Virus record (IMG/VR): IMGVR_UViG_3300028797_000289
Coordinates: 1 to 40,537 of that record
From: a virus
Strand: one strand, 5' to 3'
DNA: 40,537 nt
The notes under the pieces are model-generated. The model did not search any database, was not told where the DNA came from, and was given only the letters and a program-made list of their open reading frames with translations. The number at the start of each line of letters is the position of its first letter. Position 1 is the first letter of the stretch. Positions 4,784 to 10,530 of this stretch are shown here, piece after piece. The position numbers and the translations under genes are program-made.

Positions 4784-7700
4784 TTAATTAAGTATTACAT
4801 GATACCCATCAATAGTATCGGGTATTGTAATTTCTTGTAAGTTATCTTCTACAATTTTAGCTGTGTTTAATCCATTAATAGTAACAGTCATATTTACATC
4901 ATCTTTGGTATAGTTGAGATAATCCCAATACTTGTAGCCTTCACCAAGACAAAAGCCAATTACTACTCCGCGCTCATTTTGCATTCCAGCTGTTGAATAA
5001 ATAGTTCCATCTGGGTTTACACAAGAGAAATTTACTGTATTGCTATTTTGTGAACGTAACCACCAATAAGATGCCGTACCATTTACTGTTTTTATTCTTG
5101 ATGTATTATCTTTAAATATATCTGAATATATAACGCCAGTAGATTCTACATAATTATAACCAAAAATTTCTCTTGTAGATGGAATCCATAACTTTTCTAC
5201 ATCAATTTTTGTAGAGGATGTTACTGTACTATAATATGTCTTATTAACTTCTTGTATTCTAACTTTAATGTTAGAAGGAATAAGAGGATAGATGGTATTA
5301 TCAATAAACGGTTTCATTACATTTGTAGCTGGATAACCATCTGTTGCTGTGTTACTGCTATTCATTGCTTTTTTAGTGAGTAAACATTCCTTCGCCACAA
5401 ATGTTAACGGAGCAGTACCACCACTTGCAAGTTCATCTCCATCAATGGCAACGATTTGCATATTAACAGTTCCATACGTACTACCTAGATCTAATGGTTT
5501 ATAATTACCGAGTTTATATACTGTGCTATATGTGCCATTATTAATATTAGCTAGAATAGTATCCCAGCTGTCTTGTATTTCAATATCTTCTACAACAGAT
5601 TCAAATGCTGCATAAACAGTTTTATTACTTTGAATGTTAGTAAGTACAGCGTCAGCAGTATTAGAATTCATACTGTCAGACCAACCTAAGAATGTTGTTT
5701 GATCAACATTAGTAGGTGTGGTTCCAGTATAAGTAGCTGTATTGCCCTGTACAACATTTACAGTTTGAAGTGTTGTAGCACCATCTTGAGATTTGAAAGT
5801 TACAACATAAACTGGTTTATATGATGCTGTATATGTAGTGTTTCCAGTAATTGCGGCAACCTCAGGTACCCACGTAACGAATGGAGAACCTTGGCCAGAT
5901 GGATCTACAGGTGTTGCGCTATTATATGTAGGTACTGTTCCATATGGTACACTATTGTCTGTTTCAAGTGTATTATTATTACTATTTTTCCAAGTTACAG
6001 TATAAGTTCTAATAGTATTTGTATAACAAGCGTATATATTTCTATCTGCCGTAACATTATTTCTTGCGTCTGCATCAACAGTATTATCATCATCTTTAGA
6101 CCATCCCGCAAATGTGAATGTATATTGAGGAGTTGATGACTTAGTAGGAGTTCCAGAATAGACACCATTCCCACCGTCTGTAATACTTTCTGTGTAGTAT
6201 AAAGTTTCACCGTTATAATAATATAAATTAGAAGTAATATGATTATAAGTAATATCAATATTAGGATAACGAGATTTCATTTGTGCTAACCAAGCGCCTG
6301 TTATTGTATCGAGACCTGTAATTATCCCCTGTACTTGTGGAGTATCTACGTTAAGACCTTGCTGATTCAGTCCTTTCATAGTATCTAAATAATCATAAAA
6401 ATCTTCTACTTCAGCAGTAGTACTGGCTGTAGTAGTAAAACCAATTATACGCACACGGCTTCCTGCTTTTATATCTCCTAATATATCCAAGACAGGAATA
6501 ATAGAACTAGAATTTTCAATTCTCAATGTTTCAATTTGAGAATAGTCATTGTTAGTAACACTAAAATCGTTAATGAGAGGTTGATTTATAATTGTTAAGT
6601 TTTTAATAGTATTAGGTAAATGAATTTTTTTCAATACACCATCACTAGGTAATGTTACACCTAAAACATTTGTGCCTTCAAAATATGCCTCTTCTAGGAT
6701 GGAACAATTAGAAAGATCAACTGTTTTTTGAGCATGACCTTCCGCACCTAAACCAGAACAGTTTCGTACATCTAATTTTTTAAGTAATACATTATTTCCA
6801 AGAGTTAAATTATAAAGCTGTTGATTATCATATAAATTACTTGCATCTCCTAATTTTATTTCTTGAATTCTTGTGGCTTCTGAAAAATTCGCAAAACCAA
6901 TTTCTAATGGAGCAAGATCTCCGACACTTGAAAGTTGCGGTGCCGAATAAATAGAAATTTCTGTATCTAATAATGTATCTACAGGACATGGAAGTAATGT
7001 AGGAACACCGCTTTGTCCTCTTTCTTGTACTACATAAGAAGCATATTTAATAGTTGGATAAATATCTGTATATGGAGTGACTGTAATATCCGCTTTGGCG
7101 TAGGCTCTTAAAATAATAACCTGAGAGAGAGCGTCTCCTGCATTCCATTTACTATCCATATATTTGAATCTATTAAAAAGCCACCATTTTCTTTGTTCTT
7201 CTTTTGATCCTTGTAACATTTCAAGATAATCTCCCGTAGGACTCTTACCTGGGTCAGGATTTACTAAAGGATCAATATATTTGAATCTAGTGTCCTAAAG
7301 CCATATTGCTTCAGGCCATTTACTTTGATGTTCTTCAAAGCGATTTTCTGTTAATGAATAATTTAAACCAGCTGCTCTTAATTGCTGATACATTTGTCTA
7401 ATTTCCATAGAAAAAGCATCTCTTAAATTATTCCATAATACAGAATTTTGACCATTAAAAATAATTTTTCCATCTTGTAAATCAGTATCTTCAAGACCGT
7501 AAGAAAATACAAGAGTACCTTCATTATTTGTACCAATAGCAGTATCCATATCATATGGTTCTGCTACTGCTTTTCGTCCTAAACCTGATATACTAGAAGG
7601 ACTTCCGTGAAAACCAATAAATAAGTTTTTTGCTCTGCTATCAACCATCAGAAAGAGTTCTGTGAATATATAATAGAAAATAAAACTATCGATTTCCGCG

Positions 7701-10530
7701 TAATTACCAAATTCTGCTTTAAATTTGGCTAATCTATAATCTGATGTATCTTTATCGTAAGTTACATCAACTCTATAAGTTCTTTCTTCATAATTAACTG
7801 CCCCTGTTGTAGGATCTATAACTTCAACGTATTCTGTTCTTGTTCCAGGATATGTAACAGGAGTAGTAAGATTGTCGTTTGTAGCATCTTCTCTATATGT
7901 TGAATAAATAAAACTCTATAAAATTTGAAGTTTGCTATAATCAATCCATTCATCAGAAGGAAATCTTGCTTCGTAATCAAAACGCCATCTTTCTTTTGTT
8001 TCTCCTGTATCTGGATCAGTATAAAGAGATTCATCAAAATAATCAGATAAGAATAACATAAGATTAGATGTATTATTTTGGAATTCCCAAGATTCATCAT
8101 TACCTTCATATCCGTAAGGACCAGGCGCACGTTTAGGAAGATTAAAATTATATTTTCCTAAAAATGATGTTAATCCTGTAGATGTATTATTCCAGAAAAC
8201 AACAATAGGAAGTCCATCAATACCCCAGCGGACTTTGTTATTTTGCTGCATCTCTGGAGTTTTATAAGGACATGAATCGTTATAAAGTCTGACAAGCTCT
8301 ACGTTATTAGCTCCTTCGGAAGAAGCTACATCAGCTTTTAATACGAATCTATTAAAAGGAATAACATTATTTTTTAAAGCATAATTACTAGCATGTTCTC
8401 CACTAGAAGTCATATCAAACCCATTTTTAAACTGTAAGTCATAATTTTTACGAACGTAGACTGCTGATGAAGTACCTTGAACATTAATTTGACATCCTGT
8501 AAATGTGAATGATTTTGATGGATTAACTGGATCAACATATGTTCCAGAGATAGTTTTTTTATCTCCTTTGTATTGCGGAAGCTATTCTGCATTTAAAATA
8601 AAATATGGCAAGTTTGTAGGTAATTTTGAAATTACAATATTCCCATATTGATCAAATATATTATTTCTTGTATAACGGTCACGTTTAATAGTTCCTATTT
8701 GAGTATCCGCGATCCAATTATTTAAAATCTGATGATCAGTAAGATCGTTATCATATATTCTAATACAATAAATATCTATAGTACAATCATTTGAACCTAT
8801 ACTAATATTAACTGGATTAATTTGAGAGAAATCATCATTATCAGCATATTGTACAACGCCAGATGGAATACCATTTATAAATACATAAAGCAATCTATTT
8901 TCTGCTCTCTTTTCAGCAACAAAAGCAATTCTGACATGCTCATCTTCTTTGTACTGAGTTGATATTTGAGATTGCTAGGATTTAAGATATGCACTCTGTG
9001 ATGTTAATTCAAAGCCGCGGTTACCGCTCATGCACGACATAATGACTGCACTATAATCAATAACATTCCTAGTTGCAAATTCTATCTAAATTGTTTTTCC
9101 TGTTGTTCTAAAGTCTCTTTCAAAGGGTTTATATGGAATAGTAACTCTTGCATCTCCAGAGCAACGTAAAACTGAATTTTCGTCTTCATCTTTTACCCAT
9201 CCATCTGAAGTAAAATTAAAACCGGTAAGAGTACATTCTATTGCATCTGCTCCATCTCCATAAATCCATTCTGTTGGAGGTGGAATTATATCACTATTAT
9301 TTCTTCCTTGAGAAGAAAGATAAAGAACTAAATCTTGAGTTACTGCTTCGATATTTGCAGAAGATCCCTAGACTGTAAAATTAATTACTTTAGATACATT
9401 CCCACAAGCTATAACAAATGAAACTGAACCGCTTTCTTCTGCAATAAAAGTATAAGTTTGTTCTGTTCTATCAACAGTTTGAACTGATACAATAGTCCCT
9501 CCTATGCTAATAGTAATATTAGCATAGAAACTATTTGGATTATATACATAAAAAGGAATTGGAACAGAATCATATTGATTTACTGAAGTTTTATTAAATG
9601 AACTAGAGATAAGAACTCTATTAACTCCAGGAACAATAGACATAAATTCATAATATAATTCATTTGATGTTACTGTACTACCATTTATAGTTGCAGTCAA
9701 GTAACATTTGAAAGTATGTGTATCATGAGATTGCGCAGGAATAATAAAAGATTGTTGTTGATTTGATATATCTATTGTCTATGTTGCAATTTCAACTTCA
9801 TCTAATATAAAGTGTACAATTTTTGTTGTTGCTCCAACTGGAATATATGTAAAAACGATATCTCCAGTAAAAGGAGTTGAAACATCAAAAGTAGAACGAA
9901 TAGATAATTCAACTGATATTATTGTAAAGGCTATAATTCTTGAATTTCCATATATATCGGTTATTTGTATTTTAACAGTATTATTTCCACTTGTTAAATA
10001 AGGACCTACATTAACTTGTATTCCACCTTGTTGGATATTTTGGGTGAGTTTTAAGGCTCCATTGGAAGTTACTGTCAAAGTTCCATCACCAGTTGGTTGG
10101 CTATCTTCTATCGAAGACCAAGTAAAACTTAAAATACAGTCATCTCCAGTTGAAATAGTTTTGGAGTTGAAGCCAGAGGTGTTTGTAACTGTAAGTTTTG
10201 CTTCATTACCTCCTCCTCCTCCGCCACCTCCTCCGCCACCACCACCAATACCGGTGATTTCAAAGAGGATGTTTTCGCCATGAGTAAAATAAGCCACTCC
10301 GTCTTCTACATATCCAGAATCTACATAATTATAGCTCTGGACATCTAATATATCAACATGATTAGATAAATCAGAATATTTATCTGGAATAGAATCTAAA
10401 ACTTGATTACCTTTATCTTCTATATCTTGTAAATATTCTTCAACAGACTAATCAGCTAAAATATTATGACTTGTATAATTACCTTGCTCATCTTTAAATT
10501 TGAGAGCACCAGGTTTTAAAACTATAGGCA
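4784..10530 (-). CDS. Giant tail fibre / host-adhesion protein of roughly 1,900 codons. It carries LRR units, Listeria-Bacteroides (Flg_new) repeats, Ig-like segments and a Gly13 linker, and contains at least 8 in-frame TAG codons.
   Basis: Track ORFs 4784..7219, 7295..7648, 7916..8413, 8582..8893, 9368..9700 and 9779..10297 are all in one frame. They are separated only by TAG, at 7295, 7916, 8582, 9086, 9368, 9779 and 10448. I checked codon by codon that 7220-7294, 7649-7915 and 8414-8581 contain no TAA or TGA. The 811-aa ORF 4784..7219 carries the Flg_new-type repeat motifs (TYTVTW..., TFTFAGWSKD..., FLGWSDS...) and LRR-like segments. The 5' end is uncertain: ATG 10528-10530, which has an AAAGGAG SD, is +1 relative to the downstream frame. 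Confidence 0.6.
10207..10245. repeat. (GGN)13 trinucleotide tract encoding poly-Gly inside the giant adhesin.
   Basis: The protein reads GIGGGGGGGGGGGGGNEA. The DNA here is a cctcctcc/gccacc run. Confidence 0.7.

Follow-up and report, generated by a model that had tools for sequence, protein, structure and literature searches.

A giant TAG-interrupted fibre-type gene of a Clostridia phage, with a glycine tract that is probably a conserved hinge and not a phase switch

Introduction

A 40,537-nt viral DNA sequence (IMG/VR record IMGVR_UViG_3300028797_000289, positions 1 to 40,537; this whole stretch is called the window below) contains on its minus strand a locus of about 5.7 kb that raises two questions: whether it encodes one giant protein or several smaller ones, and whether the thirteen consecutive glycine codons near its start, (GGN)13, act as a phase-variation device. 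The original prediction, made from the letters alone, read the locus as a single adhesin gene with leucine-rich repeats (LRR), Listeria-Bacteroides (Flg_new) repeats and Ig-like segments typical of receptor-binding proteins of Firmicutes phages, and proposed that slippage in the (GGN)13 tract could switch the gene off or vary the length of a linker in the fibre. The analysis reported here indicates that the locus is likely to be one late gene of a TAG-recoded phage of gut/rumen Clostridia, encoding a modular fibre or receptor-binding protein in which the glycine tract is a conserved hinge rather than a phase switch.

Results

One reading frame interrupted only by TAG codons

Minus-strand translation placed the coding sequence of the giant gene at 4784..10531 (ATG at 10531-10529, TAA at 4786-4784), with 1,915 codons before the TAA stop in a single frame when TAG is read as sense. 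The locus had been located correctly, apart from an offset of one base at the gene start (10531, not 10530) and in the glycine tract (10208-10246, not 10207-10245). All eight stop codons within the coding frame are TAG, with no TAA and no TGA; the other two frames contain 118 stops (TAA/TAG/TGA, 52/52/14) and 246 stops (113/42/91). The in-frame TAG codons are located on the minus strand at 10448..10450 (amino acid (aa) 28), 9779-9781 (aa 251), 9368-9370 (aa 388), 9086-9088 (aa 482), 8975-8977 (aa 519), 8582-8584 (aa 650), 7916-7918 (aa 872) and 7295-7297 (aa 1079). Under the standard code the same frame is divided into six open reading frames (ORFs) of at least 100 aa (9779-10297, 9368-9700, 8582-8893, 7916-8413, 7295-7648 and 4784-7219), and the 811-aa C-terminal ORF has been entered in the public protein database as a separate protein (P0001), showing that standard-code annotation fragmented the gene.

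The window encodes a suppressor tRNA with the anticodon CUA at 24306..24381 (minus strand), which was found by ARAGORN and matched by the Rfam tRNA model at 24307-24380 (56 bits), and which sits within an array of 22-24 tRNAs. With TAG read as sense, long ORFs in the window add up to 30.3 kb, compared with 21.0 kb otherwise. ORFs that contain TAG cluster at 248-18558, together with fibre-type, RuvC-like and other late-looking genes, and every standard-code ORF of at least 100 aa that ends in TAG is in this late/fibre region; the large genes at 19.6-39 kb are TAG-free. Nine IMG/VR homologues are single, TAG-free ORFs of 1,787-2,122 aa that are collinear with the window protein across all eight TAG positions; another set of over 100 standard-code homologues is likewise unbroken there. 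At columns conserved in at least 95% of the family, the window protein agrees with the family at 239 of the 242 non-TAG positions, indicating that the giant gene is under purifying selection. The restriction of all interruptions to TAG, the tRNA-CUA and the uninterrupted, TAG-free homologues bear out the proposal that one gene spans the six ORFs, and the giant gene is best read through TAG as a single gene, with table 15 as the right working code.

A Shine-Dalgarno sequence, GGAG (10539..10542, minus strand), is located 7 nt 5′ of the ATG (upstream sequence AAAGAAAGGAGAAAAAGGATG), and no alternative start codon is present between the upstream TAA at 10597 and the ATG at 10531. The best promoter-like site (TTGACA-17-TAGAAT with an extended TG, 11 of 12 matches; 11124..11152, minus strand) lies in the divergent intergenic region and precedes the RuvC-like gene, itself 5′ of the giant gene; this site is probably the operon promoter, with promoter-like sites overall not above the count expected by chance.

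Domain architecture of the 1,915-aa protein

Pfam, run on the window protein whole and on sub-segments, matched only CotH kinase (aa 933-1084) and DUF6273 (aa 1739-1858), and PHROGs matched three families of unknown function. Searches of the PDB by phmmer and with a family profile returned only glycine-linker artefacts and no solved relative by sequence, the whole-protein matches being confined to the engineered (G4S)n linkers of single-chain variable fragment (scFv) constructs. Fold evidence was obtained from two AlphaFold (AF2) models, one of the C-terminal part (window aa 1105-1915; 69 sequences, pLDDT 87) and one of a 60%-identical homologue, P0165, which corresponds to approximately window aa 165-1205 (pLDDT 88.6, pTM 0.79).

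Aa 1-95 (10247..10531; all domain coordinates are on the minus strand) form a putative virion-attachment anchor that ends in the motif YVEDGVAYFTHGENILFEITGI and has no Pfam or PHROG match, and the Gly13 linker (aa 96-108; 10208..10246) stands at the junction of this anchor and the conserved body. The body is predicted to start with three Ig-like (macroglobulin-like) beta-sandwich domains (~aa 109-395, approximate boundaries; 9347..10207), for which Foldseek matched the P0165 model to the MG domains of alpha2-macroglobulin, C3 and CD109; this model omits aa 109-164, so that the first Ig-like domain is modelled only in part. They are followed by a lectin-like (ConA/LamG-type) jelly-roll domain (~aa 400-595, approximate boundaries; 8747..9334), for which Foldseek matched the lectin-like domain of botulinum neurotoxin Hc / NTNH as well as viral LamG/ConA-like proteins, by a CotH-kinase-like domain (~aa 640-1137; 7121..8614; Pfam PF08757 and fold) and by a further beta-sandwich domain (~aa 1138-1205; 6917..7120; AF2 models). 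The C-terminal part comprises a predicted LRR solenoid (~aa 1210-1340; 6512..6904; AF2 model and Foldseek) of ~11 short strands with regular spacing and a pLDDT of ~90-96, an alpha/beta domain (~aa 1345-1422; 6266..6499; AF2 secondary structure), approximately three InlB-type B-repeats (Listeria-Bacteroides repeat, beta-grasp fold; ~aa 1425-1645; 5597..6259), a DUF6273 domain with a C-type-lectin-like fold as the putative distal ligand-binding tip (~aa 1654-1864; 4940..5572), and 48 C-terminal residues that are predicted to be disordered or are unmodelled (4787..4930; pLDDT <50, model residues 764-811).

The top Foldseek PDB match of the C-terminal model was InlB residues 36-392, which include the LRR internalin domain and B-repeat (E 1e-4), and the B-repeats matched 2y5p (probability 1.0, TM 0.65-0.69, ~3 Å, 23-25% identity) as well as tandem ubiquitin-like folds. 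The LRR and Flg_new repeats named in the original prediction are present by fold and absent by Pfam on the window protein: no Pfam LRR model matched aa 1120-1432 at E≤10, with LRR_5 and LRR_8 matches lying in variable parts of other homologues and in the neighbouring gene 3798-4769, and Flg_new is missing from the Pfam results on the window protein, Flg_new_2 having an E of 7.1. In the homologues P0016 (34.6 bits) and P0041 (31.4 bits), Flg_new (PF09479) passes its 27-bit cut-off and maps to window aa 1575-1641. The call of LRR and Listeria-Bacteroides repeats was right despite the profile misses on the window protein, because the InlB fold matches and the Flg_new matches of homologues agree with it; the Ig-like segments are likewise supported by fold in the P0165 model, whereas the CotH kinase and DUF6273 domains had been overlooked. 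The DUF6273 match (PF19789, aa 1739-1858) scored 32.6 bits on the whole protein and up to 36.4 bits, against a cut-off of 23.5. DUF6273 has been described as a C-type-lectin fold that serves as a scaffold for the variable regions of diversity-generating retroelements (DGRs) in phage receptor-binding proteins (PMC10743442, PMC11792537). Extra DUF6273 and B-repeat copies are encoded downstream of the gene in other frames in the relatives L020 (13409-16776), L027 (13409-16822), L036 (13406-15784) and L005 (12912-14827), and these copies may serve as alternative cassettes for the tip or as small receptor-binding proteins in their own right.

Relatives and predicted role

Relatives of the giant protein are encoded at 35 IMG/VR loci (37-61% identity), and a protein search with aa 109-1185 gave 1,684 matches at E<1e-5, of which the top 120 are mostly intact ORFs of ~1,500-1,900 aa with 50-65% identity, together with a few shorter fragments. 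In a viral structure library the core recurs in proteins of gut Siphoviridae, Myoviridae and crAss-like phages and in Bacillus phage G gp353, where the annotations read "spore coat protein H kinase fold", "internalin-like" or "leucine-rich repeat protein". Of 80 loci taken from species-representative genomes, nearly all belong to gut/rumen Clostridia, among them the cultured Hespellia stercorisuis and Zongyangia hominis, which supports the Firmicutes phage context that had been proposed.

In the prophage L038, on a 212-kb scaffold, a 58%-identical homologue follows the genes for capsid, tail tube, tape measure protein (TMP), SPP1_Dit, Prophage_tail (Tal) and two small genes, and is itself followed by an r1t-type holin, an endolysin and an integrase. 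The homologue of phage NatCom_3357 occupies the same TMP-Dit-Tal-[X]-holin slot, and the homologue of the Bacteroides Hankyphage has a DGR variable repeat at its C-terminus. In the window, the RuvC-like gene precedes the giant gene, and a BspA-type LRR_5 protein and a GT2 glycosyltransferase follow it; the divergent cluster that faces the giant gene encodes, besides a virion structural protein and a GH16+Big_2 protein, a fibre of 1,007 aa that has tail-fibre PHROG matches. A receptor-binding tail fibre is the best-supported role for the giant protein, because homologues lie in the TMP-Dit-Tal-[X]-holin slot and the Hankyphage relative is a DGR target; the fibre-type neighbours also favour this role, which had been suggested from the predicted domain content. 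Fusion of a CotH kinase to a hypervariable C-type lectin has been reported, the class being noted as unstudied (Benler 2021, PMC8008677), and the CotH-type DGR target class is PC_00012 (Roux 2020 preprint).

DGR diversification of the DUF6273 tip itself was considered and rejected, as a template/variable repeat pair was not found in the 40.5-kb window: the C-terminal 1.2 kb of the gene has no repeat elsewhere in the window, and no long direct repeat involves the giant gene. No reverse transcriptase-like ORF was noticed in the window, which is possibly a partial contig and in which no dedicated reverse transcriptase search was made.

The glycine tract across the family

The thirteen codons of the tract are GGT GGT GGT GGC GGA GGA GGT GGC GGA GGA GGA GGA GGT, so that the longest run of an identical codon is four, (GGA)4, and Tandem Repeats Finder (TRF) scored the tract as an imperfect repeat (score 38, 86% matches). 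Within the window a GGN run of at least six codons is unique to this site and did not occur in any of 100 shuffles. A Gly/Ser run stands directly before the body motif NNAxLTVxNT(T/S)GWLSKTI in all 33 first-round relatives, and in the wider sets 87 of the 119 related loci and 109 of the 120 database homologues carry a Gly/Ser linker at the equivalent junction, with a length of 5-14 residues (mode 9); the window tract is among the longest pure-Gly runs seen. The linker codons are scrambled, with a longest identical-codon run of only one or two in 69 of the 87 loci and with all four Gly codons in use, and the linker is 8 residues long in every one of approximately 50 distinct NatCom-like proteins, with one Gly/Ser polymorphism among them.

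Close pairs of relatives (n=16, flank identity at least 86%) were compared for tract length. Thirteen pairs are equal in length, including six in which bases of the tract have been substituted, whereas L082 and L085 (97.6% flank identity) differ by three codons (9 nt) and two more distant close pairs differ by one codon, in each case in frame. The expected length variation is thus seen between relatives, with most close pairs nevertheless the same. Strains near-identical to the window were not found, either with an exact-flank pattern with a variable gap in metagenome_contigs and viral_contigs or by megablast against a phage collection, and an index of encoding contigs has no entry for the 811-aa ORF. 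With its 3-nt unit, imperfect repetition, longest identical run of four units and only in-frame differences among relatives, the tract does not have the make-up of a contingency locus, and in our reading it is a flexible tether that would be kept by selection on composition and that is mildly indel-prone over evolutionary time, not a phase-variation device.

N-terminal modules before the glycine tract

The part of the homologues that precedes the linker diverges completely, ranging from ~40 to >1,000 aa of unrelated sequence. Four pre-linker classes can be distinguished by their end motifs (...LFxITGI, the class of the window protein, ...SENGIPLA, ...GPLGPF and ...FEPIGTG), and 13 of 59 unique sequences are unclassified. 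Given a family-wide linker preceded by such divergent modules, the linker appears to mark a conserved seam where an exchangeable attachment module meets the body. The window gene at 11194-12102 (plus strand, six TAGs) encodes the middle of one such N-terminal module, GSPLTAA..SEM.D..HIY.YTGSETGY..G.WYYYDG, which in the relatives L005, L009 and L030 belongs to the N-terminal part of the giant protein itself, and its C-terminus, ...DQNGDLIVSGGSDI*, resembles a pre-linker motif; the presence of a module of relatives in a separate gene is evidence for module shuffling at the Gly seam. A foldon-like trimerisation motif before the linker, presumed from a resemblance to the T4 fibritin foldon, was not established: hidden Markov models of the pre-linker motif gave the foldon only 2.4-3.2 bits, a level reached by 30-40 of 2,000 shuffles.

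The CotH-kinase-like domain

PF08757 scored 31.7 bits on the whole protein and 35 bits on the segment (cut-off 23.8), with only profile positions 156-296 of 322 matched. The top PDB match of the P0165 model was Bacillus cereus CotH, 5jda (E 5e-9, probability 1.0, TM (target) 0.69). A catalytic-loop-like motif, D964-S-R-A-K-N969 (7625..7642, minus strand), has D964, R966, K968 and N969 invariant in 50 sequences, and a metal-binding-like motif, D994-M-D996 within P-Y-D-M-D-T (7544..7552, minus strand), has P992, Y993, D994, D996 and T997 invariant in 50 family members. Either of the substitutions D228Q and D251A inactivates B. subtilis CotH, and by analogy the D964 loop may correspond to the D228 loop and the D994/D996 motif to D251.

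In several relatives (L019 10850-10880, L020 10860-10900, L027 10850-10885, L017 10655-10670) the gene is split into two ORFs by a stop, a GGAGG and a new ATG, at a point of the CotH domain that falls exactly between DSRAKN and YDMD, and in L023 (5950-6835) an 885-nt gap between the split halves contains an HNH/NUMOD-like homing endonuclease ORF. The split thus seems to have originated in the insertion of an endonuclease gene, and the CotH domain seems able to reassemble from two chains.

The amino acid at TAG

The TAG columns of the giant gene were aligned with more than 110 standard-code homologues. Glutamate is found in 112 of 114 homologues at aa 482, in 109 of 111 at aa 1079, in 96 of 116 at aa 519 and in 90 of 116 at aa 650; glutamine is the plurality residue at aa 251 (35 of 110), and aa 28, 388 and 872 are variable. 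In the RuvC-like gene (10614-11129), TAG83 aligns with glutamine in 59 of 59 homologues, TAG156 in 40 of 59 and TAG67 in 33 of 59, some positions being mixed Q/E, and the acceptor stem of the suppressor tRNA has five of seven pairs in common with the phage's own tRNA-Gln (Rfam register). No single amino acid appears to fit every TAG position in the two genes. Glutamine is our best guess as a single assignment, although it does not account for the Glu pattern, and Glu or mixed decoding of TAG may occur. Assignment of TAG to Glu on the basis of the four conserved-Glu sites was not adopted, given the RuvC-like TAG at an invariant Gln and the acceptor stem that resembles tRNA-Gln.

Alternative readings

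A division of the region into six or more separate standard-code genes, or its decay to a pseudogene, would agree with the way in which standard-code ORF calling splits it and with the solitary P0001 entry; with interruptions by TAG only and within one frame, an encoded tRNA-CUA, homologues unbroken at each TAG and 239 of 242 conserved non-TAG positions matching, this explanation has almost no probability left. For the proposal that (GGN)13 is a slippage-prone repeat giving phase variation or programmed variation of linker length, the tract offers its long pure-Gly composition and relatively long (GGA)4, and the family offers linkers of 5 to 14 residues, a ~98%-identical pair that differs by 9 nt and two more distant pairs that differ by one codon. 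A repeat unit of 3 nt cannot shift the frame, however, the repeat is imperfect and its codons are scrambled in nearly all relatives, most close pairs keep the tract length even where substitutions have occurred in it, and the NatCom-like proteins share a single length. The lack of an out-of-frame variant among ~200 homologues is a weaker argument, as an in-frame translation search could not detect frameshifted copies. Taken together, the imperfect repeat, the scrambled codons, the family-wide linker and the exclusively in-frame differences speak against a slippage-driven phase switch, and we regard slippage-based variation as very improbable.

The tract might instead be a proteolytic processing site that frees the body from the anchor, or an ordered polyglycine-II element like that of S16 gp38. 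In the Tal protein of the lactococcal phages Tuc2009 and TP901-1 a Gly-rich GGSSG*GG sequence is reportedly a site of proteolytic processing, and several relatives of the window protein carry GGGGGSSSG or GGSGGSGG, which resemble it; the window protein has no protease domain by Pfam, whole or in sub-segments. Polyglycine-rich domains are known in some phage adhesins and mycobacteriophage minor tail proteins (Dunne 2018), but polyglycine-II domains consist of many spaced glycine-rich motifs of the S16 gp38 type, whereas the window protein has one single Gly run, and the tract occurs once per chain with a length of 5-14 and a variable Gly/Ser pattern. We give processing or a polyglycine-II structure a small chance. 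A protein that is mainly an enzyme or effector, whose CotH-type kinase would be delivered to the host or act on it, would explain the family-wide invariance of D964xxxxN969 and D994xD996 and the fold match to B. cereus CotH, and for viral CotH proteins targeted by DGRs Roux et al. proposed a manipulation of host signalling. Against this, the gene of relatives is in the canonical receptor-binding slot between Tal and holin, and binding modules (Ig-like, lectin-like, LRR, B-repeat and C-type-lectin-fold) make up the greater part of the protein, so that a mainly enzymatic role in place of host recognition is improbable. The two roles are not mutually exclusive: the fibre could bear an active CotH-type kinase on a polyglycine tether, acting in adsorption or assembly, for example by phosphorylating a host-surface or virion protein. 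This is compatible with the data, because the DxxxxN/DxD motifs are invariant and the clean split in relatives falls between them with both halves kept, and we consider it conceivable but on balance unlikely.

Several points weigh against a hinged fibre protein encoded by one recoded gene. The TMP, Dit and Tal genes are not on the contig, so that the tail-tip slot is seen only in relatives with a different genome type, and a virion location in the window phage is inferred; for the N-terminal 95 aa neither a fold nor a match could be recognised. The flexibility of the linker is a prediction from its composition, and the three-codon difference between L082 and L085 indicates that indels arise in the tract to some extent. 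Four of the eight TAGs of the giant gene stand at strongly conserved Glu positions (78-100%), a poor fit to glutamine decoding, and two Glu-to-Gln changes at near-invariant positions are unexpected because only 3 of the 242 conserved non-TAG columns deviate from the family.

Neighbouring genes and other elements of the window

The gene directly downstream of the giant gene (3798-4769, minus strand) encodes a BspA-type LRR_5/DUF285 repeat protein with approximately nine FNQNIQIPNSVT repeats, and some homologues of the giant protein carry LRR_5 repeats as a fusion; the next gene (2644-3801, minus strand) encodes a family-2 glycosyltransferase. A second large fibre gene (15409-18558, plus strand; ~1,007 aa) is interrupted by 12 in-frame TAGs; it contains seven tandem repeats of 42 nt (17790-18104), and its C-terminus has tail-fibre PHROG matches.

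A full-length ROOL RNA (25502-26127, minus strand; Rfam RF03087, 275.6 bits, E 3e-62) lies within the tRNA array. A short transfer-messenger RNA (tmRNA)-like element (24461-24690, minus strand; Rfam RF00023, 56.9 bits, gathering score 47), likewise in the tRNA array and ~80 nt from the suppressor tRNA, was not among the ARAGORN results, and two tRNA-model matches (22195-22267 and 27913-27975, minus strand; 44-46 bits) are outside the ARAGORN list of 22 tRNAs. An intergenic repeat motif, which reads TTGAC/TTGA...N17...TGATATAATATA as its reverse complement, is present at 22451-22501, 26571-26621, 28462-28510, 29287-29337, 32615-32665, 33288-33338, 34279-34329, 35951-36001 and 38513-38563. These repeats are predicted to be sigma-70-type extended -10 promoters before TAG-free minus-strand genes, and fit a role as early/middle promoters used by a host polymerase of the Firmicutes type.

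Discussion

In the proposed mechanism, the phage tRNA(CUA) would read the eight in-frame TAGs of a single late gene, most probably as glutamine. The short, lineage-specific N-terminal module would dock the protein on the virion, and the Gly13 linker would act as a flexible tether for a large body of three Ig-like domains, a jelly roll, a CotH-kinase-like domain and a beta-sandwich, beyond which the distal LRR, B-repeat and DUF6273 domains may bind structures of the host surface. During evolution, the Gly tract may have been the seam at which different N-terminal modules were joined to the same body.

Phages that read TAG as sense (code 15 type; Lak and crAss-like phages) are known to encode suppressor tRNAs and to show recoding biased to late genes. 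Like these phages, the window has TAG in structural/late genes, TAG-free early genes and a tRNA-CUA in a large array; it differs in its host, apparently Clostridia, and in that half of the TAGs of the giant gene replace conserved Glu rather than Gln. The closest counterparts of the protein are XTK82179 (NatCom_3357, Ca. Heliusvirales) and many gut and rumen prophage relatives (for example P0150 and P0172, in Clostridia metagenome-assembled genomes), which share 50-65% identity over most of their length, the order of linker, Ig-like, jelly-roll, CotH, LRR and B-repeat modules, and a Gly/Ser linker at the same junction. In these relatives the gene is in standard code and lies between Tal and holin in ~45-kb temperate siphophage genomes, whereas the window gene has eight TAGs, belongs to a tRNA-rich (22-24) recoded genome and adjoins a RuvC-like gene, and the N-terminal modules and C-terminal tips differ. 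The Hankyphage p00 DGR target (BK010646, 31489-38226) has a homologous core that includes the CotH-like domain (24% identity over aa 317-1427), a giant size and a lectin-fold C-terminal tip; its tip is diversified by a DGR and its host is Bacteroides, in the window, a possibly incomplete contig, no template repeat was found, and the host is apparently Clostridia.

Individual modules also have known counterparts. Bacillus CotH (PF08757; PDB 5jd9/5jda) resembles the window domain by a Pfam match above threshold, the best PDB fold match and the invariant Asp/Asn motifs, but it stands alone as a ~360-aa kinase of coat proteins, whereas the window domain is embedded with insertions in a 1,915-aa fibre. 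Listeria internalin B is the top PDB fold match of the C-terminal model, with a B-repeat that superposes at ~3 Å; in contrast to this bacterial invasin, the window modules are part of a phage protein, have no sequence-level LRR match and differ in repeat number and order. Engineered (Gly4Ser)n linkers and Gly-rich phage tail elements (S16 gp38, and the cleavage site of lactococcal Tal) are similar to the tract in composition, whereas the window tract is natural, single, of variable length across the family and located at a module junction, and is not a multi-motif polyglycine-II lattice.

The giant protein thus joins a family that had already been noticed and left unstudied, here in a recoded genome and with an LRR/B-repeat/DUF6273 end instead of a DGR tip, and the family-wide Gly/Ser seam and the clean natural split of the CotH domain in relatives are small new observations. 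The main host-recognition gene of a recoded phage is shattered into fragments by standard-code gene calling, and a tempting but unsupported account of phase variation has been removed. Both the engineering of chimeric fibres and the annotation of module boundaries can make use of the Gly/Ser seam. If the kinase is active, a family of >1,600 members across Clostridia phages, remotely related to proteins of Hankyphage, crAss-like phages and Bacillus phage G, would be a previously undescribed class of enzymatic receptor-binding proteins. The giant CotH-domain fibre family is very large and experimentally untouched, and it probably sets the host range of many phages of gut/rumen Clostridia.

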